A stretch of 32,000 bases of DNA, taken from Nanobdellota archaeon. GTDB taxonomy: Archaea > Nanobdellota > Nanobdellia > Pacearchaeales > GW2011-AR1. The notes beneath the pieces are model-generated. The model did no database searches. It was not told where the DNA came from and saw only the letters and a list, made by a program, of their open reading frames with translations. Positions 12,043 to 27,756 of the stretch are shown piece by piece (the stretch's first letter is position 1; the number at the start of each line of letters is the position of its first letter). The stretch is from assembly GCA_022563455.1 (NCBI GenBank), contig JADFNI010000003.1, positions 12,666-44,665 of the forward strand, given 5' to 3'. Made by a program: the position numbers and the translations under genes.

Positions 12043-14778
12043 TTAATCAAAGATATCTTCTTTTTTTGGTTCAGTTTTTTGTTCTTCTTCAGGATTATGG
12101 TTGTCTGTATCTATATTTTCTACAACTTCTACGTCGCTTGTTGGTTCGTGGTTTTCAACTGGTTTATCTTCTACGATTTCTTGAGCTGTTGTATTTTCTT
12201 CTATGACTTGGGCAGCTTCTTCATTTTCTTCAGGCACGTTTTCTTCTTCGGTTGATTCTTCTTCTTCTTCTTCTTCGGTTGATTCCTCCTCCTCTAACAA
12301 ATCTTCCACTACAGGGCCATTTTTTTCTATTTCTTCTGCTCGAACTAGCTCATCGCTTTGTCTTTCCTTTAATTCAGTATCTATTGAATTTTCATCATCT
12401 ATTTCATCTATTTTTCCTTGCCCTTCTATTGATTGCGCATCTTCTGAATGTTTTGCCTGTTCATTTTCTTCTTGTGGTTCTTCTACTTCTTCTTCAATCT
12501 TATTTTCTTCTACTTCGTCTACAGATTCGCCGTTTTCTAATTTTTGAACTAAGACTGAGATTTCTTTTGCGACATCTGCATTTACTGAAATTGAGTCAAT
12601 TCCTTGTTTTACTAAGAACTTTACCATTTCTTTGTTGGATCCTGCTTGACCGCAAATTGAAGTTGTGACTCCTTGTTTTTTACATTCTCTAATTACTCTG
12701 GAGATTTGTTTTAGGACTGCCCAGTTTGTTTCGTCATAGATAAATTGAACGTCTTCGTTTCCTCTGTCGATTGCTAAGGTATATTGTGTAAGGTCGTTTG
12801 TTCCAAATGAGATGAAATCGATTCCGACTTCACAAATGTCTTTTATCATTATCACTGCTGCTGGCGTTTCAATCATTACTCCAAATTCAACGTTATCCAT
12901 TTCTAGTTCTTTGAAAACTTCTTTTGCGGCTTTTACTTCTTCAACTGAAATTATTTGAGGAAACATTACTCCTAATTTATGGCCTTTGTTTGCTAAATTT
13001 TTAATTGCTCTTAGTTCTGCTTTAAGGATTCCTAAGTGTTTTAGTGAGAATCTTATTCCATGATTCCCAAGCATTGGGTTTTTTTCTATTTCTTTTGGTG
13101 CACCTGCAAGATTTGAATATTCATCGGATCTAATATCTGAACTTCTTATCCAGATTTTTTTTCCAATAAATGTTTCTGCGATTTTTCCAAGACCCTCTTC
13201 TAACATATTTTGATATTCATCTAGGGTGTTGTTTTCTTCATGAAATAATGGGTGCTTTTCTGAACTTGCGATCAAACCTTCGAGTCTTACTAAACCTACA
13301 CCGTCTGCTTTTGTTTTGGCGGCACGGCTGCTGAATTTTGGAAGGTCTACTAAAACTTTTATTTTTATTTTTGTGTTAACGATTGGGAGGATCTCTACGG
13401 ATTTGTTTTCGGCAATGCCTGCAAAAACTATTCCATTAAATCCGTCAACTGTGACTTTATCTCCGTCTTTCATAACTTCGAGAGCGTTTCCAGTACCTAC
13501 AACTGCTGGGATTCCCATTTCCCGAGATACAATTGCTGCATGTGCGGTTATTCCTCCTTCTGAGGTTACTATTCCTGCCGCCCTTTCCATTGTGACTACC
13601 ATATCTGGGTTTGTCATTGTTGTGACTAGGATGTCTCCTTTCTTTATTTTTCCAAGATCTTCTGTAGACTTTATTATTTTTACCGTTCCTGAAGCGACAC
13701 CTGGAGAAGCTGCCAAGCCTTCAGTTAATATTTGACCATCAAGGTCTTCTGAATCTGAAATTTCTTTAGTTTTTTTAAGGGTTGTTATTGGTCTTGTTTG
13801 AAGGATGAATATTTCATCGTTTTCTATTGCGAATTCAATGTCTTGAGCTTTATTATAGTGCTTTTCTAGTTTTAGTGCATATTCTCCTAGCTGTTTTAGT
13901 TCATAAGTTTTCAAGACTCTTTGATTTGATTTTTCAGGAGTTAGTTGAATTGTTTTTGTAAGGCCACCTGCAGTACGAATAATTGCTAACTTTTTATCGG
14001 CAATTTTTTCTTCTTTAATCTCTAGATCTCTAGATAACACATGCCCGTCCGGTTTTATTTTTCCGGAAACTATTCCTTCACCAAGGCCAAAGACAGATTC
14101 GATTAGTATTTCATCGGTATTTTTTACTGGATGTTTTGAGAAGATGACTCCTGCCTTATCTGCGTTTATCATTTTTTGAACAATTGCAGCTATTCCTACA
14201 AAAGCTTCGAATCCTTTTTTCTTTCGGTAGTAAATGGATCTTGCGGTGAAAATTGAGGCGAAGACTTTTTTTATGGCTTCTATTAGTTCTCTGTTTCCTT
14301 TAATGTTTAAGAAAGATTCTTGTTGGCCTGCAAAACTTGAATCGTCTAAGTCTTCTGCTGTGGCAGAACTTCTGACTGATACGAAAATTGGTTCTCTTGA
14401 AGATTTTAATATGGCTAGAGCTCCAGGGGATCCTTCAAGGCTTTTTAAATCTATATTGAAATGATCATAGGCCTCGGTGATTTTTGAACTTAGGTCTTCT
14501 GGCATTTTTGCAGAATTTATTAATTCTCTTATTTCTTTTGATTTTTCTGTTAAATTGTCCGTGTCATCTACGTCAATTCTTTTTAGAAGATCTTTTATTT
14601 GGTCTTTTATTTTAGTTTCTTTTAAGAATTTAGAGAATGCATCAGTTGTTACGACGAAAGCTTGTGGAACTGGGAAATGCGAATTGTACATTTCTCCGAG
14701 GTTTGCTCCTTTTCCTCCTGCGAGATTTAAGTCGGATTTAGAAAGGTCGGAGAGCCATGCAATGTATTTATCACCCAT
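12043..14778 (-). CDS. ppsA: Phosphoenolpyruvate synthase (pyruvate, water dikinase) with 164-aa acidic C-terminal extension
   Basis: 911 aa. N-terminal LAGGKGANLGEM ATP-grasp signature and phosphohistidine swivel motif GGITAHAAIVSREMGIPAVVG, plus a PEP-utilising TIM-barrel region. An E/D-rich tail follows it. Confidence 0.9.
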   Translation of the reverse strand: MGDKYIAWLSDLSKSDLNLAGGKGANLGEMYNSHFPVPQAFVVTTDAFSKFLKETKIKDQIKDLLKRIDVDDTDNLTEKSKEIRELINSAKMPEDLSSKITEAYDHFNIDLKSLEGSPGALAILKSSREPIFVSVRSSATAEDLDDSSFAGQQESFLNIKGNRELIEAIKKVFASIFTARSIYYRKKKGFEAFVGIAAIVQKMINADKAGVIFSKHPVKNTDEILIESVFGLGEGIVSGKIKPDGHVLSRDLEIKEEKIADKKLAIIRTAGGLTKTIQLTPEKSNQRVLKTYELKQLGEYALKLEKHYNKAQDIEFAIENDEIFILQTRPITTLKKTKEISDSEDLDGQILTEGLAASPGVASGTVKIIKSTEDLGKIKKGDILVTTMTNPDMVVTMERAAGIVTSEGGITAHAAIVSREMGIPAVVGTGNALEVMKDGDKVTVDGFNGIVFAGIAENKSVEILPIVNTKIKIKVLVDLPKFSSRAAKTKADGVGLVRLEGLIASSEKHPLFHEENNTLDEYQNMLEEGLGKIAETFIGKKIWIRSSDIRSDEYSNLAGAPKEIEKNPMLGNHGIRFSLKHLGILKAELRAIKNLANKGHKLGVMFPQIISVEEVKAAKEVFKELEMDNVEFGVMIETPAAVIMIKDICEVGIDFISFGTNDLTQYTLAIDRGNEDVQFIYDETNWAVLKQISRVIRECKKQGVTTSICGQAGSNKEMVKFLVKQGIDSISVNADVAKEISVLVQKLENGESVDEVEENKIEEEVEEPQEENEQAKHSEDAQSIEGQGKIDEIDDENSIDTELKERQSDELVRAEEIEKNGPVVEDLLEEEESTEEEEEEESTEEENVPEENEEAAQVIEENTTAQEIVEDKPVENHEPTSDVEVVENIDTDNHNPEEEQKTEPKKEDIFD

Positions 14779-14800
14779 AAGGGGATTAGCCTCTAGAGGT

Positions 14801-14808
14801 ATTTAAGT
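14801..14808 (-). promoter_or_regulatory. Archaeal TATA-box candidate for ppsA (ACTTAAAT on minus strand)
   Basis: Lies 23-30 nt upstream of the ppsA ATG at 14778, with no SD site. Confidence 0.35.
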
Positions 14809-15023
14809 CTTGCTCCTGATTTTGAGGGGCTTTGCCCCCTTTGTACAATCTATCTTGTTGAATAGGGTATATTAGAGTATATAGATTTTGATAAATTTTT
14901 TTTATAGGGTCTAGAGAATATGGCTTGTTTAGTATATATGTTATGATATAGTATATTAAAGTCTATAGATTTGAGCAAAAAAAAAGAGGGTTTTAAATTT
15001 TTTTGGTAAATAAATGTAAGTAA

Positions 15024-15446
15024 CCCCCACCAGCAGGAGTCGGACCTGATCTGGTGGAGGCTTTTTACTAAAGATTTCTCTGATTCAGACGATTCTGACA
15101 TTTCCAAGATTTTGCTCCTTGGTTGTCGACAGCATCGTCTTTGCGTATAACGTGCTGGAAACTGAATGAGCCCCACCTACCATGATTACCTTGTCAATAA
15201 TCATGTTGCGAAGTGTAGGTGAGACTCGATGACCGGAACACCACTCTCATGCTTGGGGGGTCTCTTGCATGAGGCTTCAAAGGTGTTCGGATCATCTCAG
15301 CCAATCATCTTGTTGGATAAATGAAGCCCATCTGCTCATGATAGCCACACAACTAGTCATCTTGAAGATCGCAGGTGAGCTCTTTGATGCCTACACTCTT
15401 GTTTGAAGGTCAGCAACTTCTACAAGAGGCTTCGCAGGGCATCAAA
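15024..15446 (-). other. About 420 nt ORF-free region made of six consecutive stem-loops (candidate structured RNA or origin-like element)
   Basis: Stem-loops at 15024-15060, 15130-15157, 15174-15221 (nested 7-bp and 8-bp stems), 15228-15296, 15325-15381 and 15383-15446 (nested 9-bp, 7-bp and 4-bp stems). One C-A mismatch on the plus strand (in the 15024-15060 stem) becomes G-U on the minus strand; the 15325-15381 stem is equivocal on strand. Confidence 0.35.
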
Positions 15447-15468
15447 TTATTATCTTTATTAGTTCCTG

Positions 15469-15609
15469 CTAGTCGTCGAGAGGATCCTCGAAAAGCTCTG
15501 GGAACTTTTTCCGAATGCGTTCTTTAACTATCAATGCAAAGAGGCTTACGTAGAAGATGCATGTAGTTACTGCTGATCTGAAGAGGCTTTTGACTACTTT
15601 TTGGACCAT
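15469..15609 (-). CDS. Small single-pass membrane protein, 46 aa (not in ORF track)
   Basis: AAGGAAA SD site 5 nt before the ATG. Sequence MVQKVVKSLFRSAVTTCIFYVSLFALIVKERIRKKFPELFEDPLDD: one TM segment followed by a basic/acidic tail. Confidence 0.35.
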   Translation of the reverse strand: MVQKVVKSLFRSAVTTCIFYVSLFALIVKERIRKKFPELFEDPLDD

Positions 15610-15645
15610 TGTATTTTCCTTTGTGTTTGTTGGAAGCGTTATATT

Positions 15646-15780
15646 TTACTTTTTACGTATTCGCATTCGCCCAGATCTTCTTTTATGTCTTGCTTTCTTG
15701 ACCTTTTCCTTTTTCTTTCCTTTAGGTTTTCTGATTAGCTCCCTTAGATCTGTACTTGTTTTGATTGAGTTTCTTTGCAT
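15646..15780 (-). CDS. Very basic small protein, 44 aa (not in ORF track)
   Basis: GAGGT SD site 6 nt before the ATG. Sequence MQRNSIKTSTDLRELIRKPKGKKKEKVKKARHKRRSGRMRIRKK. Confidence 0.4.
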   Translation of the reverse strand: MQRNSIKTSTDLRELIRKPKGKKKEKVKKARHKRRSGRMRIRKK

Positions 15781-15814
15781 GGTTCTACCTCTGGTTTACA
15801 GAGCTTATAACCTA

Positions 15815-16318
15815 TCAAGATTCATCCCTTTTGAGCCTGATTGCCTTTACCCCTTGTGCAAAAGACATTAGGACGAACAGCAAGGTAAAGAGAACTCCGA
15901 CTGTTCTTGCAGGACTTCCACTTCCTACGCGAAAGGCGCTTGCGAAGTTACCGTCGAAGAAGTCCATGACGAAATTTGGAATCCAGAAGTAGAGGACTGT
16001 TGAGTGTTGCACGATTGAAGACAAAACTACTTTTGGTGAAGTCCGAAGAATTTCTTCTCCGAGGGTCTGATCTATCCAGCTTGTGATGCTGAAGAGGAAG
16101 ACCAGCGAGAAGGTTCCAAGAACCATACAAGTGAGCCATTTGAGTGGGCCGCCTTTCGGATTCTGTTCGAAGTAGTCCTTGAGAAATCCTACGGTGATGA
16201 CTCCAGAGGCTATGGCAGTGCAAGTGTTTGCCCACGTGCTCGCTCCCGTGAACAGTGCGATTGAGATTGCATTGAGGATCAAGAAAGTTCTATAGAAATT
16301 GTTGAGATTGTTAAACAT
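15815..16318 (-). CDS. Integral membrane protein, 167 aa
   Basis: ORF with about 4 hydrophobic segments and a GGGGGG SD-like run 4 nt before the ATG. Overlapping alternate-frame ORFs are disregarded. Confidence 0.6.
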   Translation of the reverse strand: MFNNLNNFYRTFLILNAISIALFTGASTWANTCTAIASGVITVGFLKDYFEQNPKGGPLKWLTCMVLGTFSLVFLFSITSWIDQTLGEEILRTSPKVVLSSIVQHSTVLYFWIPNFVMDFFDGNFASAFRVGSGSPARTVGVLFTLLFVLMSFAQGVKAIRLKRDES

Positions 16319-16369
16319 TGTACCCCCCAGATTTGCTGTTGTGTAACGGTTTTTGGTTAATAGTTTTTC

Positions 16370-16528
16370 TTAGATTCTTCTTTTCTTTCTCGCAACAGCC
16401 TTTGCAATTTTTGCTTTGTCTCTTTGCTTTTTGTTTGCAGCAAAGCCATTTTTGATTCTTGAACCATTGCTTGGGCTGCCTCTTTGAATTTTTCGCGTTT
16501 CTTTTTCTTCGTCTTCGTCCTTCTTCAC
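16370..16528 (-). CDS. Basic small protein, 52 aa, GTG start (not in ORF track)
   Basis: AGGAGA SD site 7 nt before the GTG. Sequence MKKDEDEEKETRKIQRGSPSNGSRIKNGFAANKKQRDKAKIAKAVARKKRRI. Confidence 0.35.
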   Translation of the reverse strand: MKKDEDEEKETRKIQRGSPSNGSRIKNGFAANKKQRDKAKIAKAVARKKRRI

Positions 16529-16630
16529 CTAGAACTCTCCTTTCTGATTATCTATTTAAAAAGAAATTTACGCACACTATTATCTAACCTGTTCTTGATT
16601 TCTTTTTTTGCCCTTTGCCCTTTTCTTCTT

Positions 16631-16858
16631 TTAAACGTCCTTGCTTTGCACGTTTTCTTCTCTTTTTGTTTCCTCTTCTTTTTTCGTGTGATCATTGTTT
16701 GACCCCTTCAGTTCTCCGAAGAGTTCTTTTTTGCTTTGTTGATCTTCACGCTCCATTCTGCTTTGCTTTACTTTTTTGAAGGACTTTCGTCGCCTTCGTC
16801 GCAGTTCCATGATTTTCAGCCCCTCGGATGGATTCTTCTCCTGTTTTTCTTTCTTCAT
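16631..16858 (-). CDS. Highly charged K/E/R-rich small protein, 75 aa
   Basis: AAGGAGG SD site 5 nt before the ATG. The SD overlaps the TGA stop of the upstream 51-aa ORF. Confidence 0.5.
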   Translation of the reverse strand: MKKEKQEKNPSEGLKIMELRRRRRKSFKKVKQSRMEREDQQSKKELFGELKGSNNDHTKKEEETKREENVQSKDV

Positions 16859-16869
16859 GGAGTCCTCCT

Positions 16870-17025
16870 TCAGTTCTCATTCGGATTACTTACTTGGAGT
16901 TCTTCTGTGGAAGATCTTCTTCTTTTGAAGATCTTTCTTTCCTCCTTCTTCTGTGCTTTTCTTATTCTTTCCTCCTTCTTCTTGATTTCACGCTTTTCTT
17001 TCTTGGATATGCGACCTTTTGACAC
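16870..17025 (-). CDS. Highly basic small protein, 51 aa, GTG start (not in ORF track)
   Basis: GGGAGAG SD site 5 nt before the GTG. Sequence MSKGRISKKEKREIKKKEERIRKAQKKEERKIFKRRRSSTEELQVSNPNEN. Confidence 0.4.
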   Translation of the reverse strand: MSKGRISKKEKREIKKKEERIRKAQKKEERKIFKRRRSSTEELQVSNPNEN

Positions 17026-17057
17026 TATATCTCTCCCGTTTTTCTTGGTGTTGGTTG

Positions 17058-17183
17058 TTAGGGATGATTCTTCCAGAAGAAGTTATCTTTTTTCTCTTTA
17101 TGAAATCTCATCAAAAATAGGATTGATAACCAGATCAGACTCATTGCTAGAACTTTGAACGCGCTTTCTACGAGATTTCTCAT
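17058..17183 (-). CDS. Small hydrophobic protein, 41 aa (not in ORF track)
   Basis: GGGGAAG run just upstream of the ATG. Sequence MRNLVESAFKVLAMSLIWLSILFLMRFHKEKKDNFFWKNHP, with one TM segment. Confidence 0.35.
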   Translation of the reverse strand: MRNLVESAFKVLAMSLIWLSILFLMRFHKEKKDNFFWKNHP

Positions 17184-17281
17184 TTTCTTCCCCACATATA
17201 ACTGTGATGTTGTTTTGCAGCGAAGAGAAAGGGATCCTTTCGGGTTTGGACCTTAGGATTCCTCTTTTCTGATTTAGCTAG

Positions 17282-17524
17282 CTAGCGCCGCTTTCGTCTT
17301 TGTCTTTCTTCTTCCTTAGTACATCCTTCGAGCAGTTCTTCGAAGAGTTCTCCGAAGTTATCTGATGGATCAGAATCAGAATCGTCATCATCTGCGTGAG
17401 AACTTCTTGCGCCAAGGTCTTCTTTTTGTACGACTGGTTCTACTCTCTTGTATCCGTCTTTTTCGCTTCGAAGCATTTTGATTGCTCGTGATTCTGATTC
17501 TGATTCTGTTCGTGATTTGCTCAT
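17282..17524 (-). CDS. Charged small protein, 80 aa (acidic centre, basic C-terminus)
   Basis: GGGGGAA SD-like run 3-4 nt before the ATG. A perfect TATAAT (plus-strand 17557-17562) lies 32 nt upstream of the ATG. First gene of the small-ORF operon. Confidence 0.5.
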   Translation of the reverse strand: MSKSRTESESESRAIKMLRSEKDGYKRVEPVVQKEDLGARSSHADDDDSDSDPSDNFGELFEELLEGCTKEEERQRRKRR

Positions 17525-17596
17525 GTTTCCCCCATTTGTTTTTGATGGATTGAACTATTATAGTCTGTCAGGATTTACTGAAATGATTTTTTAGAA

Positions 17597-17884
17597 CTAT
17601 ATCTTCTTGTTCGGGTTTTTCCAAATTACTTTTCTTTTGTTTGTGATCTTTCTGATGCTTTGGTGACTACAGATAAAGAGGAGCTGGTGCCCATTGTTGA
17701 AAACAATGAATGCACCATCATCTTTTATCATGTTATGGATGGAAGATTTTCTTACCCTGATTTTAAAATTTTTTACTCTGTTTCTTGGAATTGGAGACTT
17801 TTTGTAGGGGTCCTTTCTCCAGTTCTCTGAGAGAAAAAACGTGTGGGTTCCTACCTTGGTTGGGAAGTAATGCTCTTCGTTCAT
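17597..17884 (-). CDS. Hypothetical protein, 95 aa
   Basis: GGGAG SD site 6 nt before the ATG. No motif recognised. Confidence 0.5.
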   Translation of the reverse strand: MNEEHYFPTKVGTHTFFLSENWRKDPYKKSPIPRNRVKNFKIRVRKSSIHNMIKDDGAFIVFNNGHQLLFICSHQSIRKITNKRKVIWKNPNKKI

Positions 17885-17934
17885 GATTTTCTCCCATTCT
17901 GTTTTTGATTGTTTATTGTGATTTCGCGTTAAAG

Positions 17935-18040
17935 TTATCTAACGCATAAAACGTAAGGGCTCTACCTTTCCCATAGCAGCATCTAAGTCTTTTCCAGGAC
18001 TTTCGAGTTGTGCATTTGGGAGATTGGTAGAGCCCTATCT
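17935..18040 (-). repeat. Intergenic box-plus-hairpin module, copy A
   Basis: Box TTATCTAACGC at 17935-17945, then an 11-bp stem AGGGCTCTACC/GGTAGAGCCCT (about 17956-17966 and 18026-18036) enclosing about 59 nt. Confidence 0.5.
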
Positions 18041-18150
18041 TACATTTTGGGTATAGACCCGGTTCCGTCTATATCCGGTTCAGCTTGTCTACATAAGTGC
18101 TTTTCTCCTTTTTGGTTGGAGTTGTTGATTAATGAACTGTTAGGTTAGAG

Positions 18151-18234
18151 TTATCTAACGCTTAAAATTGAGGACTCTGCCTGCTGTTATACGCCATTCT
18201 AACTGAGCTTTTCAGTTAGAAACAGACAGAGTCC
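18151..18234 (-). repeat. Intergenic box-plus-hairpin module, copy B
   Basis: Box TTATCTAACGC at 18151-18161, an outer stem at 18172-18183/18223-18234, and a perfect 10-bp inner hairpin at 18197-18221. Confidence 0.5.
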
Positions 18235-18245
18235 CCGAACACTCA

Positions 18246-19241
18246 CTAGAAGAACTTGAACTTGAACCCGACTGTTCCTGCGAGGATGCTAGTGTCTGGT
18301 TTCTTGCTTGCAGGAATTGTGACACCCCCTATGAATGTGATGCGTCTCGTTATTATAAATTCGGCTCCGAGTTTTAGATTGACGATGAACGATGCTTTTT
18401 TCGAGCTTTTGGAGTCATCGTTGCCGTTGATCTTGATTGCGGCTAGTCCAATTCCTACTCCGAAGTATGGCTGGATTGGAAACCTTTCCCAAACTGAGTT
18501 CAAGTTGGCAGTAATTTGTGTGACGTCAATTTTTACTAATTGGCGTCTCAAATTTCTAACATTTACATCAACATCAGAACTGTAGTTGATGACGCAACCG
18601 CCGAGGTCGATTCTCCAACTGTCGAAGTAGATTCCCAAATCCGATGACGATCTCTTTTTCTTTGAGAGGCAGAACTCAAAGCCGTCGTTTCCTGTGACCG
18701 TTACATTTTGCCCAAGCCTTTTTTTGAAATAACCTTTGAGGTCGTTGCTTTGAGGGTTGATTACTACCCCGCTGTAGAAGTGGAAATCTTGCAGCCATTC
18801 AGGTTTCCATTCTTTCTTTTGTTCTTTGGCCTCTGCAGTTTCTCTTTCTTCTTTCTCCTGATCTTTGGTCTTCGCAGTTGCAATCGTGGTGTAAATAGGG
18901 CTGTTGCGATGACGCTCTAGTTTTTCGGCATCGCTCTCTTCACTTTTATGATGATCAATTATTGGGTTTGGGGGATTTGGTTGGTGATTTTGTTTTTTTC
19001 GAGTGTTGCTTGCCTCCTTGAGTTTACTAGTCGTGATAGAAGGGGACTTCTTTTCCACCCGGGAAGTGTGTGGCTTTTGCTCTCGGGGAGAGTTATCTAG
19101 TTCGGTCAGTTCGGTCAGTTCGGTCAAAGCTTCTTGCTCGTTCTTTGCCCCTTGCTCAGATCTGTAGTTTATCCCAGCAAGTATTGCTAGAGCTGTTGCG
19201 ATGAATGTTGCGATGACGATACCCCATGCGTTTTTCGACAT
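18246..19241 (-). CDS. Membrane-anchored protein with C-terminal OMP-like beta-barrel domain
   Basis: The preferred start MSKNAWG (19241) has AAGGAA 8 nt upstream; the track start at 19268 is a TTG. N-terminal TM anchor, (TEL)x3 repeat and charged linker. The C-terminal ~190 aa has alternating amphipathic strands and ends ...GTVGFKFKFF, like a bacterial OMP beta-signal. Confidence 0.6.
   Translation of the reverse strand: MSKNAWGIVIATFIATALAILAGINYRSEQGAKNEQEALTELTELTELDNSPREQKPHTSRVEKKSPSITTSKLKEASNTRKKQNHQPNPPNPIIDHHKSEESDAEKLERHRNSPIYTTIATAKTKDQEKEERETAEAKEQKKEWKPEWLQDFHFYSGVVINPQSNDLKGYFKKRLGQNVTVTGNDGFEFCLSKKKRSSSDLGIYFDSWRIDLGGCVINYSSDVDVNVRNLRRQLVKIDVTQITANLNSVWERFPIQPYFGVGIGLAAIKINGNDDSKSSKKASFIVNLKLGAEFIITRRITFIGGVTIPASKKPDTSILAGTVGFKFKFF
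18903..19030 (-). repeat. Direct repeat copy 1 (inside the OMP-like gene)
   Basis: About 130 nt similar to 19207-19339, offset 310 nt, including a 41-nt identical core CTTTTATGATGATCAATTATTGGGTTTGGGGGATTTGGTTG. Confidence 0.7.
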
Positions 19242-19554: not shown

Positions 19555-19603
19555 GTTGTCTCCTGTTGATTGTTGGTTGTTATTGATATAGCTTCGCGCA
19601 AGA

Positions 19604-19694
19604 TTATATCTGACGCGTAAAATTGGAGCCCTATCCCACCACCAACTGAAGGGAACTTCCCAGGAGTTGATGGTTTGCGGTAGGGTAGGGCTCT
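19604..19694 (-). repeat. Intergenic box-plus-hairpin module, copy C
   Basis: Variant box TTATATCTGACGC at 19604-19616 overlapping a minus-strand TATAAT (plus-strand 19603-19608). Long imperfect stem at 19625-19640/19677-19694 with an inner stem. Confidence 0.45.
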
Positions 19695-19802
19695 GTCGAA
19701 CATCGTTTTCTTCGCTTTTGGCTTAGAATTCGCTTTGTCCGAAGATGCTGTTGCAAGAGAGGATGGTTTTTTCTGGAATGTCTCGTATTGTTCGAAAAAG
19801 AT

Positions 19803-21699: not shown

Positions 21700-21911
21700 T
21701 TCTTTGTTTCCTTTTTACTTTAAGTGATCAACTAATTTCCAATTCAATGTGGTGCTAGGAAACTTGGTGTGTTTTGTTTGGTTCTCCTTTCTTTATGTTT
21801 CGTTGTAGTTATTTTTAGTGCACTATTGTGCTTGAAAGAGTACCTTTCCCTATGGTACTAGAAGGACTTATTTGTTGTTGACTTTAGAGTCAGTCGGTTA
21901 GTTAGTTAGTC

Positions 21912-22349
21912 TTACTCAAATTCTTCGATCAACCCCCAGACCAACCCAAAGACCAACCCAAAGACAGGTCCTAAGACAAACCCAAAGACCAACCCCAAGA
22001 CCAACTCAAGGATCAACCCCAAGACAAACCCAAAGACCACCACCCAGACAAACTCAAAGACCACCCCAAAGACCAACCCAACAATCAACCCATAGGTCAA
22101 CCAATAGAACAATCCCCTTTCACCGTAGCTCTTGAGGTTATTCCATCCATATTTTTGCCATGCAATGAAGCTTATGGCGGTTGAGGCTACTGAGATGTAG
22201 CAAATGATTGGGCATATGAAAAATGAGGGGTGGAAGGATACTTGAGAGTCTTCTTGTCCAACTCCTAGTTCTTTGAAAATTAGGTGGGAGTGATAGATCA
22301 TGGCTATGCTTGCTACTCCGAGAATGAGTGATACGAGTAGTCTTACCAT
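21912..22349 (-). CDS. Membrane protein with extended GxxxG glycine-zipper repeat
   Basis: 145 aa. The C-terminal half, GLIVGLVFG...VFGFVLGLILELVLGLVFGFVLGPVFGLVFGLVWG, has Gly every 4th residue and is encoded by tandem CCAAAGACCAACCC-like DNA repeats at 21931-22090. The N-terminus is uncertain (see the leader repeat at 22399). Confidence 0.55.
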   Translation of the reverse strand: MVRLLVSLILGVASIAMIYHSHLIFKELGVGQEDSQVSFHPSFFICPIICYISVASTAISFIAWQKYGWNNLKSYGERGLFYWLTYGLIVGLVFGVVFEFVWVVVFGFVLGLILELVLGLVFGFVLGPVFGLVFGLVWGLIEEFE

Positions 22350-22398
22350 AGAACTCTTGCTGACGCTGTTTGTTGAGATTTCTTGAGTGGAAATGACA

Positions 22399-22458
22399 GT
22401 TCTCCTTGGTTTTGTTGTTTGATTTTTTGATCTATACAGAAATCCGTAGACTCCTGAA
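22399..22458 (-). repeat. Promoter/leader repeat, copy 2
   Basis: Same unit as 20842-20901. At the position of the ATG in copy 1 it has ATT (22392-22394), which is in frame with the downstream 145-aa ORF. Confidence 0.6.
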
Positions 22459-22509
22459 TAAAGGTTGCCCTCCTCTAAAGAAGCTGGAAGGACTTTGGTG
22501 GATGCTTTC

Positions 22510-25052: not shown

Positions 25053-25487
25053 CTAAAGGGGATAGATGCCAACAAGTTTTGCTCTCATAAGCGCGCTTAT
25101 AAGCTGCTTATCCTTAATTATATTAGGACAGTTGTGGATGTTATTCTCTCTCGCCTCATTAAAAATCGGCACTAATTCATCTTCACCTAGAAGCTCATCT
25201 TCACTTCCCCATCTACGAAAATTGATACGGGCATCCAGAAGTTCTTCGCAAAGCATGCCTACATTTGGAAAAGTACAAAATGTCAAAAGAACGAGAGGGC
25301 CTTGATCAAAATCAACTTCTATCCGGATTATGCCTACTTCAGGAAATGCATTCTTTATATTTATCTTAGGATCTTGGGGTAGAAGATATCCATGGGATCC
25401 TTCCATACATATTAGAATTATTCTAGCTGTAGTAGTGAACATCAGCTGTCGATCAGGAGTAATTTCTTCTATATCGAAATTAGGCAT
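25053..25487 (-). CDS. Hypothetical cytoplasmic protein, 144 aa (paralog family member)
   Basis: GGGGAA SD site. Shares CME, IRIEVDFDQGPLVLLTFCTF and ARINFRRWGSEDELLGEDEL blocks with 23060-23410. Confidence 0.55.
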   Translation of the reverse strand: MPNFDIEEITPDRQLMFTTTARIILICMEGSHGYLLPQDPKINIKNAFPEVGIIRIEVDFDQGPLVLLTFCTFPNVGMLCEELLDARINFRRWGSEDELLGEDELVPIFNEARENNIHNCPNIIKDKQLISALMRAKLVGIYPL

Positions 25488-25815: not shown

Positions 25816-27756
25816 TCAGGCTAATCTTATTAATTTTTTCCAGCCTTTTTCGTATTTTATTTCTTCAATTTTTACTAGTCCTTTTTCTTGAAGAGATGTT
25901 TTAATATTAGTTCCTTTTCTGGCTGATAAATTAACAGCTTTGTAAACTTCTGTTGTGCTCATATTGTGGGCTGGATTTTCTTGCAAGAATTTCATGAAGA
26001 CTTGCTCATCTTTTGATAAAGATGTGTTTCCTAGGTTGTTACCCCTTTTAAGTGTTACTGTTAGCTCATTTTCGAAGATTTTGTTGATTACGAGAATTAT
26101 ATCCCTACTTGTGTAATCTCCTTGTAATTTGCTTTTTTCTAAGGTTTCTTCTATTTGATCTAGCCCGTATCCTGCATTTAAGTATTCATTTACATAATCG
26201 TAAAGCATAGATTGAACTTCGTTAAATTCATTAATTTTATCTTTTCTTTTAACTAAGATATCTTCTTCAGAAGGGGTATTCTCTTTGGAGACTCCTTGAG
26301 GATCTTCTAAAATTTTTGTTTTGTCCTCGCTATATACAATACTTTTATTGAATTCATCTTCCGGATTTTCTTCAAATTCTTTTGAGAAAGTTATAGCTTT
26401 CATTCTGTTTTTGATATCTTCATCTGTTATAATTATGCTTCGATCTTCCTTTTCTACTTTAATTAAGAATGGTTTTGGGTATCTTTCAGAGAGTTTTACA
26501 ATTGCGGAACCTACTGGAAGCTGTGAGAAATAATGTTTATTTTCTCGAAGCTGCATTAATTCACTTATATCAAAAATGTCTTGTGGAAGTTGAGCTTGAA
26601 ACGCGATATGACATGCAGAATTTCCTTTTACTGTGTCTGAGATTTTAGAAATATGTTGGTCTAAACAAATTAGGCTTGTTCCGTATTCTCTCATTTCTCT
26701 GTAAATCATATCTGTAACGGACTCATTTGCGAAGTTTGTTGGCTTTTTTAAGAATATGTTATGGGCTTCGTCGACGATTATTGCGTGTTTGAATTTTCCA
26801 GAAAAGTTGCTTGATTCTGCTTTTTTCATCTTGTAAATGTAGATTAATATAAATTCGCAGAAGACTTTTTTCTCGATGTTTCCAAGAGAATTTAACTCCA
26901 TGATTACCCTTTTATCAAGTAAATCTTTTACACTGAGGCTGTTATCTCCCTTGTAGTTTAGTGTTTTTCCAAATTCACCGAATGTTAAAACTGTTGCAAC
27001 TCTTAAGGCTGACTCAATCCACCCAGCTTCTCTTCCTTGCGTTCTTCCTAATTTTTCTTCTAATTTCCATTTAAGATGGTTCCAAGTTGGATAGTTTTCA
27101 GAGCCTGAATAGATTCCCCATTCTTTGAATGCCTCGTCAAGAGTTTCTAATAAAACTTTGTGAACACCAAAAGATGCTTGGAAACTTTCAACCAAAAAAT
27201 CGCAAAGTACGTTGATCCATTCTTTTGGGGAGATTCCAATTGGTGGTTGATTTATATTTGTCTTAAATAAATTGCTTACAGCCTCGTTACCGATGGTAAA
27301 ACTAAGTATTGTATTGTCTTTTGCTACAAGTGGTCTAAAGGATTTTTTCCAATCGAATACTAAGTATGGTTTGTTGTTTGCTTTTAAAGCGTCTAATATT
27401 TTAAATGCAAAATTTGTTTTACCTGAACCTGACATACCCGTAACACAAATATGTCTTGGAAAATCTTGTTCTCGAAGACTAAATGGATATAGGTTTTTTT
27501 TAGCGTAAGAAACTGTTGCTAAATTGTACTTTCCTGAAACTTGGTTTTGCATTGGAGGTTCTAGTAAAACTCCCTTGTCAAGGAGCATGTTAAGATTTTT
27601 TTGATATAATGCGTTTAAGATGTGTGCTATTTCTTCACGTTCTTCTCTAGTTTCAGCAATAGAATACTGGAAGTATACCTTGTCTACTTTGTCTCCTAAT
27701 ATTGGTCTTAAGTTATTACAAATTTCTTCTACTGTTAGGGGGCGTTGAATTGTCAT
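25816..27756 (-). CDS. FtsK/HerA-superfamily P-loop ATPase (DUF87-like) with C-terminal winged-helix-like domain
   Basis: 646 aa. Walker A motif VTGMSGSGKTN and Walker B motif HAIIVDEAHN. The C-terminal ~70 aa is HTH-like (MSTTEVYKAVNLSARKGTNIKTSLQEKGLV). Low GC and no SD site, matching the host flanks. Confidence 0.75.
   Translation of the reverse strand: MTIQRPLTVEEICNNLRPILGDKVDKVYFQYSIAETREEREEIAHILNALYQKNLNMLLDKGVLLEPPMQNQVSGKYNLATVSYAKKNLYPFSLREQDFPRHICVTGMSGSGKTNFAFKILDALKANNKPYLVFDWKKSFRPLVAKDNTILSFTIGNEAVSNLFKTNINQPPIGISPKEWINVLCDFLVESFQASFGVHKVLLETLDEAFKEWGIYSGSENYPTWNHLKWKLEEKLGRTQGREAGWIESALRVATVLTFGEFGKTLNYKGDNSLSVKDLLDKRVIMELNSLGNIEKKVFCEFILIYIYKMKKAESSNFSGKFKHAIIVDEAHNIFLKKPTNFANESVTDMIYREMREYGTSLICLDQHISKISDTVKGNSACHIAFQAQLPQDIFDISELMQLRENKHYFSQLPVGSAIVKLSERYPKPFLIKVEKEDRSIIITDEDIKNRMKAITFSKEFEENPEDEFNKSIVYSEDKTKILEDPQGVSKENTPSEEDILVKRKDKINEFNEVQSMLYDYVNEYLNAGYGLDQIEETLEKSKLQGDYTSRDIILVINKIFENELTVTLKRGNNLGNTSLSKDEQVFMKFLQENPAHNMSTTEVYKAVNLSARKGTNIKTSLQEKGLVKIEEIKYEKGWKKLIRLA

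Follow-up and report, generated by a model that had tools for sequence, protein, structure and literature searches.

A dense set of eight small orphan open reading frames in a higher-GC island of a Pacearchaeota-type archaeon

Small proteins of fewer than 80 amino acids are routinely missed by annotation. The closest described systems for the locus reported here are horizontally acquired, strain-specific islands of orphan small genes, including those passed from bacteria to DPANN archaea, and archaeal integron cassettes and CALINs, for which cross-domain cassette sharing has been described in Nanoarchaeota (Ghaly et al. 2022, PMC9668308). The locus is found in a Pacearchaeota-type (DPANN) archaeon, at positions 15469-17524 of a 32,000-nucleotide stretch of DNA that will be called the window. 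It shares with the acquired islands a deviant GC content, the orientation of the genes on one strand and translation signals unlike those of the host. It differs from them in that every ORF is an orphan, and in that this very site is occupied by other islands in several species.

The likeness to integrons and CALINs lies in the array of small ORFs on one strand of a DPANN genome, mostly orphans and bacterial in their affinities, together with hairpins between some of the genes. However, when both strands were scanned between 14800 and 25900 by pattern matching (regular expressions) and folding, no attC pair of complementary R''(RYYYAAC) and R'(GTTRRRY) boxes 40-150 nt apart was detected, and this candidate was rejected. 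The local hairpin modules have a lone GTTAGAT box that pairs with a TCTAAC next to it, unlike the attC layout. A covariance model built on three hairpin-plus-box modules (R1) recovered in the window its own three training copies alone, none of which falls in 15469-17524, and a search of nine sister-island loci with it yielded no credible copy, the best further match having E=0.34. Furthermore, no IntI or Phage_integrase match was obtained with Pfam among the 20 larger ORFs of the window, although a CALIN need not have such a recombinase nearby.

An inovirus-like prophage was also considered, as the locus has numerous tiny genes, among them ones for single-pass peptides with basic termini and for a small multi-TM protein, next to a P-loop ATPase with a partial Zot match. 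This candidate was discarded: the adjoining ATPase is a host gene of the HerA/DUF87 type, and the ORFs had no counterpart in PHROGs (no match at E <=0.05 for any of the eight), in phage records or among viral contigs. The best match of this ATPase was DUF87/HerA, followed by HerA, mad8 and, weakly, CedD; the Zot match was restricted to residues 322-384. The gene has a host-like GC content and is conserved in the genus regardless of which island comes next, its 3' end being kept in about 30 genus genomes that lack the present island. The initial annotation had named a viral or plasmid origin of the small ORFs as a possibility, which was not supported, since neither PHROGs nor phage, plasmid and viral-contig searches returned a match. 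The roles it suggested (nucleic-acid binding, secretion or toxin peptides) are guesses. Two other known systems were set aside. For Ced-type DNA import, the best NCBIfam match of the ATPase, CedD, scored 64.5 bits against a cut-off of 600, and read-through translations over all eight ORFs, where CedA, A1 or A2 membrane subunits would be expected, matched no NCBIfam family. For known anti-phage defence, the PADLOC models gave chance-level matches alone (E=0.018 and 0.055).

The stretch belongs to a 10.8-kb island of higher GC content (0.40-0.44 vs a genome mean of 0.333), which occupies a variable hotspot between the HerA-type ATPase gene and ppsA and is flanked by archaeal genes on both sides. 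The genes of the island share one strand, and their translation signals differ from those of the host. The same island was found in at least three assemblies, with proteins about 99% identical, and it is missing from 48 genomes of the same genus, in which both flanks are kept. No integrase, att repeats or tRNA target was found for the island; one 11-mer shared by its borders (15457 and 25905) was examined as an att-type direct repeat and proved compatible with chance.

Eight ORFs of 80, 41, 51, 75, 52, 167, 44 and 46 aa are present on the minus strand of the stretch. The 80-aa ORF (17282-17524) encodes an acidic, Ser-rich product, predicted to be disordered, with a basic C-terminal tail. It is followed by the 41-aa ORF (17058-17183), whose product has a single hydrophobic segment (residues 7-28) and a basic C-terminus; its ATG lies at 17183, and a longer version of 45 aa starts from a GTG at 17195. 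The next two products are rich in K, R and E: the 51-aa one (16870-17025, GTG start), in which these residues make up 57% and whose ORF contains an internal repeat about 30 nt apart, and the 75-aa one (16631-16858), which carries an ELFGEL motif. The 52-aa ORF (16370-16528, GTG start) encodes a basic product of pI 10.9. The 167-aa ORF (15815-16318) corresponds to a putative membrane protein with a basic tail, for which Kyte-Doolittle windows indicated three clear TM-like segments (residues 11-28, 59-82 and 135-160) and a weaker one. Finally, the 44-aa product (15646-15780) is hyperbasic, with a net charge of +18 and a pI of 12, and the 46-aa product (15469-15609) has one hydrophobic segment, at residues 11-30, and an acidic motif at its C-terminus. 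By the same hydropathy windows, the 41- and 46-aa products have one TM-like segment each. The fraction of K, R, D and E residues reaches 0.49-0.57 in five of the eight.

All the features described in the initial annotation, namely the eight ORFs with their SD-like sites, charge bias and membrane segments and the motif that some of them share, were present and beyond chance, and the TGA of the 51-aa ORF was indeed seen to overlap the AAGGAGG site of the 75-aa ORF. The set had also been called tightly packed. This was only partly right, because the intergenic gaps, from the 80-aa to the 46-aa ORF, measure 98, 32, 11, 102, 51, 34 and 36 nt.

The eight small ORFs tile the stretch too densely for chance. 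When ORFs of 41 aa or more are counted, 80% of it is covered, against 35±12% (maximum 72%) in 1000 composition-matched, local first-order Markov simulations, none of which reached 80%; the tiling of the antisense strand is 27%. The anti-SD duplex energies at the proposed starts are -11.9 kcal/mol for the 75-aa ORF, the strongest in the stretch, then -9.9 (167 aa), -9.0 (52 aa), -8.4 (80 aa), -7.4 (51 aa), -7.1 (44 aa), -5.8 (46 aa) and, for the weak site of the 41-aa ORF, -5.5 kcal/mol. An energy of -6 or lower was thus attained at 6 of the 8 proposed starts, whereas 5 of the remaining 46 start codons of the stretch reach it. Of the six SD-like sites in the stretch with an energy of -8 kcal/mol or below, four are placed 5-12 nt ahead of the starts of the 80-, 75-, 52- and 167-aa ORFs. 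Two AAGGAGG sites (around 16978 and 16948) lie in the interior of the 51-aa ORF, with no start codon after either. Among host ORFs of at least 250 aa, just 16% reach -6 or lower; as the host is mostly devoid of SD sites, expression of the set in this archaeon is uncertain.

Coding potential was scored with a codon model trained on the other ORFs of the island, as the initial annotation had suggested, and compared with open frames of the same dinucleotide content. Coding support beyond composition was limited to three ORFs, those of 167 aa (z=4.2), 80 aa (z=2.3) and 46 aa (z=2.35). No codon signal beyond composition was obtained for the ORF of the 41-aa membrane peptide or for the K/R/E-rich 51-, 75-, 52- and 44-aa ORFs (z=0.4, 0.6, 0.8, 0.9 and -0.1, respectively), in a test that has little power on 40-75 low-complexity codons. 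The caution first attached to these ORFs, that purine-rich DNA easily yields open frames, was well founded, since the codon patterns of the 51-, 75-, 52- and 44-aa ORFs could not be distinguished from those of open frames in such DNA.

Besides their charge, some of the products share an acidic motif. Its repeat at the DNA level spans 19 nt, of which 18 are identical (95%), between 16709-16727 in the 75-aa ORF and 17333-17351 in the 80-aa ORF, both copies being on the minus strand and in frame. Looser copies were found at 17345-17363, at 15476-15495 in the 46-aa ORF and at 25234-25253 in a 144-aa ORF. The 80-aa ORF also contains a perfect 15-bp inverted repeat on the minus strand (17369-17504, arms 17369-17383 and 17490-17504), whose arms encode Ser-Glu and Asp-Ser runs; the fold of 150 nt around it has a z value of -3.3.

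The cluster probably comprises two or more transcription units and not the one operon of the initial annotation. A single operon is unsupported because an AT-rich spacer of 102 nt (16529-16630, minus strand), bearing two TAGATAAT boxes (16547-16554 and 16579-16586), splits the set, and because the 80-aa ORF has a leader and a TATAAT hexamer of its own. This hexamer, -10-like as read from the sequence, is located on the minus strand at 17557-17562, 33 nt before the 80-aa start, and over 29 nt the leader that follows it shares 72% identity with that of a neighbouring 95-aa ORF. The TAGATAAY box has 8 matches in the window vs 3.3±1.6 expected, 5 of them on the minus strand of the island.

As judged by sequence comparison, no ORF of the set has a homologue apart from near-identical strain copies. 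The eight products matched no family in Pfam, PHROGs or NCBIfam, and the earlier remark that no known family is recognised was borne out by these searches, by PADLOC and by the sequence searches. When the 167-aa, OMP and 75-aa products were compared with 5.8 billion clusters, only themselves or near-identical strain copies were returned. Scans of metagenome and viral contigs, blastn and tblastn against phage and plasmid records, and the PDB gave the same result. Among 1.84 billion representatives, the sole relative of the 80-aa product was itself; the 167-aa product was an orphan in every search run, and no paralogues were found elsewhere in the genome. In the ESM Atlas, the 167- and 80-aa products, whose models are poor (pLDDT 0.52 and 0.47), had low-score or long-helix look-alikes alone.

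The statement of the initial annotation that five of the ORFs are missing from the ORF track was addressed indirectly, by exact look-up. The 80-, 52- and 167-aa products were found as called genes in NCBI and ENA records, the 80-aa one on three contigs (NCBI, ENA and Logan), whereas Logan alone has a call for the 44-aa product, on a contig. No public record has a call for the 41-, 51-, 75- or 46-aa product as such, the sole call within the 75-aa ORF being its 41-aa C-terminal part on one Logan contig. Half of the eight ORFs are thus absent from every public call set.

Sister species of the same genus carry different islands at the same ATPase-ppsA locus. Some of these contain FliS, CsrA (with homologues in two of the islands), a PEP-CTERM protein and a module made of a lipoprotein, a 4-TM protein and a tiny hyperbasic ORF. 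In three sister islands, a multi-TM protein of 150-170 aa is followed by an SD-led tiny hyperbasic ORF of 33 aa (sister genome G058), 39 aa (G052) or 63 aa (G053), and the 44-aa ORF is likewise located directly after the multi-TM gene. The two arrangements also agree in locus and in strand relative to the ATPase gene, and are similar in size. The topology of the 167-aa protein matches that of the sister 4-TM protein, in which a loop separates the first three TM segments from the last and a basic tail follows, and besides position, size and topology both have a short Q-x-x-G-E-E...P stretch. The present island differs from the sister module in having no lipoprotein gene directly upstream and no csrA. 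At the sequence level there was no significant similarity: alignment of the 167-aa protein with the sister 4-TM family (alignments A1/A2) gave an hhalign probability of 0.3-0.5%, a profile of this family found no match at E <=0.1 in the genome to which the window belongs, and tblastx and blastp comparisons of this island with the sister islands detected no homology. A second metagenome scan for further members of the sister 4-TM family returned the G052 and G058 islands alone.

Taken together, we give roughly even chances to the interpretation that the stretch consists of orphan small protein genes, genuine now or until recently, of an acquired 10.8-kb island with bacterial-type expression signals. 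Each ORF would be started from its own Shine-Dalgarno site, and transcription would proceed in two or more units, roughly 80 / 41-51-75 and 52-167-44-46. The products may form a membrane-anchored set built on the 3-4-TM protein and the two single-pass peptides. The five highly charged products are probably disordered or helical, and their Arg/Lys clusters could contact nucleic acid or acidic partners; the recurring acidic motif, of the ELF-E-EL type, might act as a short docking element. The set could be a local and strongly diverged version of the sister module of lipoprotein, 4-TM and tiny hyperbasic proteins.

It is possible, although we consider it on balance doubtful, that the true genes are the 167-aa one and perhaps also those of 80 and 46 aa, and that the 51-, 75-, 52-, 44- and 41-aa ORFs stay open by chance, in a T-poor, purine-rich spacer with few stop codons in any frame. 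Overlapping alternative ORFs of 47, 44 and 36 aa do open in other frames of the purine-rich core, the 47-aa one (16552-16695) even with an SD-like site of -7.8. The codon scores of the five ORFs are no better than those of these alternatives, the base composition is A-rich at every codon position, most of the five were never publicly called and none has a homologue. On the other hand, the low codon scores come from a test that is weak at these lengths, and the tiling of the core taken alone is still unusual (75% vs 32±20% simulated, p=0.018). Within the core, the two strongest SD-plus-start pairs with correct spacing are precisely those of the 75- and 52-aa ORFs, and the recurrence of an SD-led tiny hyperbasic ORF at an equivalent position in three sister islands also speaks against chance. 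Another explanation, that the ORFs are remnants of larger foreign genes decayed by frameshift or nonsense mutation after acquisition of the island, seems unlikely. Decay is visible elsewhere in the island, where around 18094 an SD site and an ATG are followed by a TAG, and where a 70-nt leader is duplicated (89% identity) with the loss of the ATG in the copy at about 22393. Moreover, the coordinates place the 75/52 pair and the 44/46 pair each in a common reading frame. However, these same-frame pairs are parted by several stops of different kinds and by AT-rich spacer sequence, translations of the three sense frames in which X replaced each stop matched no Pfam or NCBIfam family, and there is no room for the lost remainders of genes, because each ORF has its own SD site and the gaps are of 11-102 nt only.

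That the purine-rich core (around 16340-17060) acts as RNA or DNA, namely as a CsrA-binding leader, a sponge or a homopurine tract, appears very improbable. This idea draws on the CsrA homologues of the two sister islands and on G053, where an island-borne csrA is immediately preceded by about 200 nt of nearly all-purine sequence. Against it, csrA is absent from the present island, and GGA (15 observed vs 17.1±3.9 expected), ANGGA (8 vs 8.6±2.9) and likewise AGGA are not enriched. In addition, the 16529-16630 spacer folds no more stably than shuffled sequences (z=0.07), and no Rfam match was obtained even at E <=1.

The reading as orphan small protein genes can be extended into a broader proposal, to which we attach a low probability. 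The cluster would then be a hyper-diverged copy of a module of lipoprotein, 4-TM and tiny hyperbasic proteins, sometimes with CsrA, that recurs in bacterial-type islands kept by several species of the genus at one locus, immediately downstream of the HerA/CedD-like DNA-translocating ATPase. It would represent an envelope or nucleic-acid-handling apparatus acquired across domains, maintained and diversified by a host-dependent archaeon, and not inert cargo.

If the ORFs are translated, hypercharged and single-pass membrane micro-proteins without relatives would be expressed from bacterial-style signals in an archaeon that mostly lacks them. Taken alone, the 2-kb cluster is an unexplained set of orphan genes, and the wider locus is of greater interest. 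In many species of the genus, the ATPase-side locus holds different, partly bacterial-type islands with FliS, CsrA, a PEP-CTERM protein, an outer-membrane-type barrel and a pilin, and it could make it possible to test how bacterial genes are acquired and retained by DPANN archaea. The closest relative of the sister-island FliS is 59% identical and belongs to a Planctomycetales MAG; this MAG was rejected as the donor, as its contig shares nothing else with the islands. The 41- and 46-aa products, for their part, resemble the small membrane toxins of type I toxin-antitoxin systems in size and in having one predicted TM segment each, a likeness of sequence features only.

Inspection of the ORF listing for 15469-17524 bore out the eight minus-strand ORFs of 80, 41, 51, 75, 52, 167, 44 and 46 aa proposed in the initial annotation, the 41-aa ORF being extended to 45 aa when an upstream GTG is taken as start. 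The ORFs are separated by gaps of 11-102 nt and occupy about 80% of the stretch, and K+R+D+E make up 49-57% of the residues in five of the eight products. Two single-pass peptides and a four-segment membrane protein had also been claimed; one hydrophobic segment was indeed found in each of the 41- and 46-aa products, and the 167-aa product contains three clear segments and a weaker fourth. The acidic motif common to the 80-, 75- and 46-aa products was found as described. Its basis is a 19-nt repeat, which lies in frame in the 80- and 75-aa ORFs (18/19 bases identical) and has a looser copy in a 144-aa ORF of the surrounding higher-GC island. A perfect 15-bp inverted repeat also lies within the 80-aa ORF.

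Purines make up 61% of the coding strand overall and 72% of its core (16340-17060), and open frames are therefore cheap in this stretch. In simulations with local first-order Markov chains (1000 sequences), ORFs of 41 aa or more, chosen without overlap for the greatest coverage, tiled 35±12% of the stretch (maximum 72%), compared with 80% for the real sequence; for the core alone, the values were 32±20% and 75% (p=0.018). Tiling of the real antisense strand was 27%. The eight-ORF arrangement in 15469-17524 was thereby confirmed to exceed chance.

To evaluate the ribosome-binding signals, all 9-mers were scored for duplex energy with a CCUCC-type anti-SD. The stretch contains six SD clusters at -8 kcal/mol or stronger: four directly precede the starts of the 80-, 75-, 52- and 167-aa ORFs, and two belong to a repeat within the 51-aa ORF. 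Of the 8 proposed starts, 6 have a site of -6 or below, versus 5 of 46 other ATG/GTG/TTG codons. Since few host ORFs reach -6 (16% of those of at least 250 aa, versus 9% of random positions), these signals are foreign to the usual style of the host.

A codon test favouring all eight frames was discounted because of a bias introduced by stops in the remaining frames. With a codon model trained on ten other island ORFs, and open frames with the dinucleotide content of each ORF as null, the coding-potential check was positive for the 167-aa (z=4.2), 80-aa (z=2.3) and 46-aa (z=2.35) ORFs. It was negative for those of 41, 51, 75, 52 and 44 aa (z -0.1 to 0.9), whose scores were not above those of overlapping alternative ORFs (47, 44 and 36 aa). 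The 167-, 80- and 46-aa ORFs are very likely real genes. Those of 75 and 52 aa are probably genes as well because their start signals are excellent, and those of 51, 44 and 41 aa are possible genes.

The eight ORFs are unlikely to form the single operon first suggested, as the 80-aa ORF is preceded at 33 nt by a TATAAT hexamer and has its own leader, and the 102-nt spacer preceding the 52-aa ORF carries two TAGATAAT boxes. This leader resembles that of the adjacent 95-aa ORF, and the TAGATAAT box, which is enriched on the island strand, also occurs after the large hairpins around the gene of the outer-membrane-type barrel protein. A simple scan found no terminator inside 15469-17524. An ORF-poor region of about 430 nt (15022-15450) separates the last small ORF from the left border of the island and matched nothing in Rfam at E≤1; it contains the sole terminator-like hairpin found in 14800-18300, at 15041-15022.

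In agreement with the earlier failure to recognise a known family, the ORFs gave no match in Pfam, PHROGs, NCBIfam or PADLOC. Translations of all three sense frames, in which X stood for stops, were also without match in Pfam and NCBIfam, which argues against recognisable decayed larger genes. The 167-aa protein retrieved itself alone among 5.8 billion clusters and had no match in the genomes of 40 relatives, metagenome contigs, viral contigs, plasmids, phages or the PDB. Save one low-complexity match, the 80-aa protein found only itself among 1.84 billion representatives, and the sole match of the 75-aa ORF was a 41-aa sub-call on one contig. Exact look-up showed that the island is present in other assemblies too, where the barrel protein differs at 1-3 residues.

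The genome holding the window is archaeal (0.97 Mb, 87% complete, GC 0.333), and the island spans 10.8 kb (about 15.0-25.8 kb) at a GC of 0.40-0.44. A DNA search of 48 genus genomes matched just its two flanks: the last 60-85 nt (25816-25900) of a HerA/DUF87 ATPase gene (25816-27756, minus strand) and an AT-rich element preceding ppsA (about 14860-14990). These flanks are conserved in about 30 of the 48 genomes (up to 92% over 60-85 nt), at a distance from each other of 0.3 to about 10 kb, and the intervening DNA is different in every species (loci L013-L021 and L027). This varying spacing marks the ATPase-ppsA interval as a variable hotspot across the genus and makes assembly chimerism unlikely. 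The best NCBIfam match of the ATPase, CedD (a DNA-translocating ATPase in Sulfolobales DNA import), is a lead only, since its 64.5 bits fall far below the cut-off of 600; HerA and mad8 defence models are matched as well. That a DNA translocase adjoins a hotspot of foreign DNA may be coincidental or not. On the other side, the ppsA-like gene (12043-14778, minus strand) encodes PPDK_N, PEP-utilizers and PEP-utilizers_C domains, followed by an extremely acidic C-terminal extension of about 160 aa without domain match.

The islands of four sister genomes (G052, G058, G018 and G053) have a GC of 0.45-0.51, markedly higher than in the host DNA on either side. Bacterial-type genes were found in them, namely FliS (E=1e-31), CsrA (E=4e-26; two species) and a PEP-CTERM protein (L015:6168-6494, L020:2728-2964 and L020:5872-6699, minus strand; L027:2277-2468, plus strand). 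The best FliS relative, 59% identical, comes from a Planctomycetales MAG, the rest of whose contig is unrelated to the islands. The sister islands have in common a module made of a lipoprotein gene, a 4-TM protein of 150-170 aa and small SD-led ORFs. In three of them, the 4-TM gene is succeeded by a very small, hyperbasic ORF with an SD site (33 aa in G058, 39 aa in G052 and 63 aa in G053); that of G053 lies in a tract of almost nothing but purines that immediately precedes csrA. In the window, the 44-aa ORF similarly comes after the 167-aa gene; however, homology between the 167-aa protein and the sister 4-TM family is not demonstrable by sequence, and the link appears to be a positional analogy only. 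In G024, the locus (L013:2636-4781, minus strand) has a host-like GC and encodes a membrane protein of about 170 aa in four tandem paralogous copies, along with a 364-aa secreted protein.

Other readings were weighed for the cluster. An integron cassette array was an appealing one, since CALINs carrying bacterial attC sites have been documented in archaea, Nanoarchaeota included (PMC9668308). The island contains three homologous hairpin modules (17925-18045, 18140-18240 and 19595-19700, minus strand). In each, a long hairpin precedes a small one around a GCGT(T/C)AGATA box; the modules fold far better than shuffled sequences (z -6.1 to -7.4) and flank the gene of the barrel protein together with a truncated copy upstream of it. 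The array was rejected, as zero R''/R' pairs were found in the island and a covariance model of the modules detected no further copy, either in the window or at nine loci of sister islands. An inovirus-like set found no support, the ATPase being a conserved host gene and matches to phage proteins being absent, and neither did a CsrA sponge, since GGA is not enriched.

The finding in 15469-17524 is a cluster of small orphan genes within a foreign island. The most economical guess at a mechanism would be a membrane-anchored trio with basic, disordered partners binding nucleic acid. Trio and partners would be part of an acquired element; its counterparts in sister species would have the architecture in common and no detectable sequence likeness. 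The hotspot and its bacterial-type cargo are a more remarkable feature than the cluster itself.

Signs of gene decay were observed elsewhere on the minus strand of the island. At 18094-18112, a strong SD is followed by an ATG and directly by TAG, and at 22393-22462 lies a 70-nt leader that matches the one of the 120-aa lipoprotein gene at 89% identity and no longer has a start codon. Finally, a tandem repeat of twelve 12-nt units (21903-22118) inside a 145-aa ORF encodes a repetitive hydrophobic stretch of the G-L/F-V-F type.
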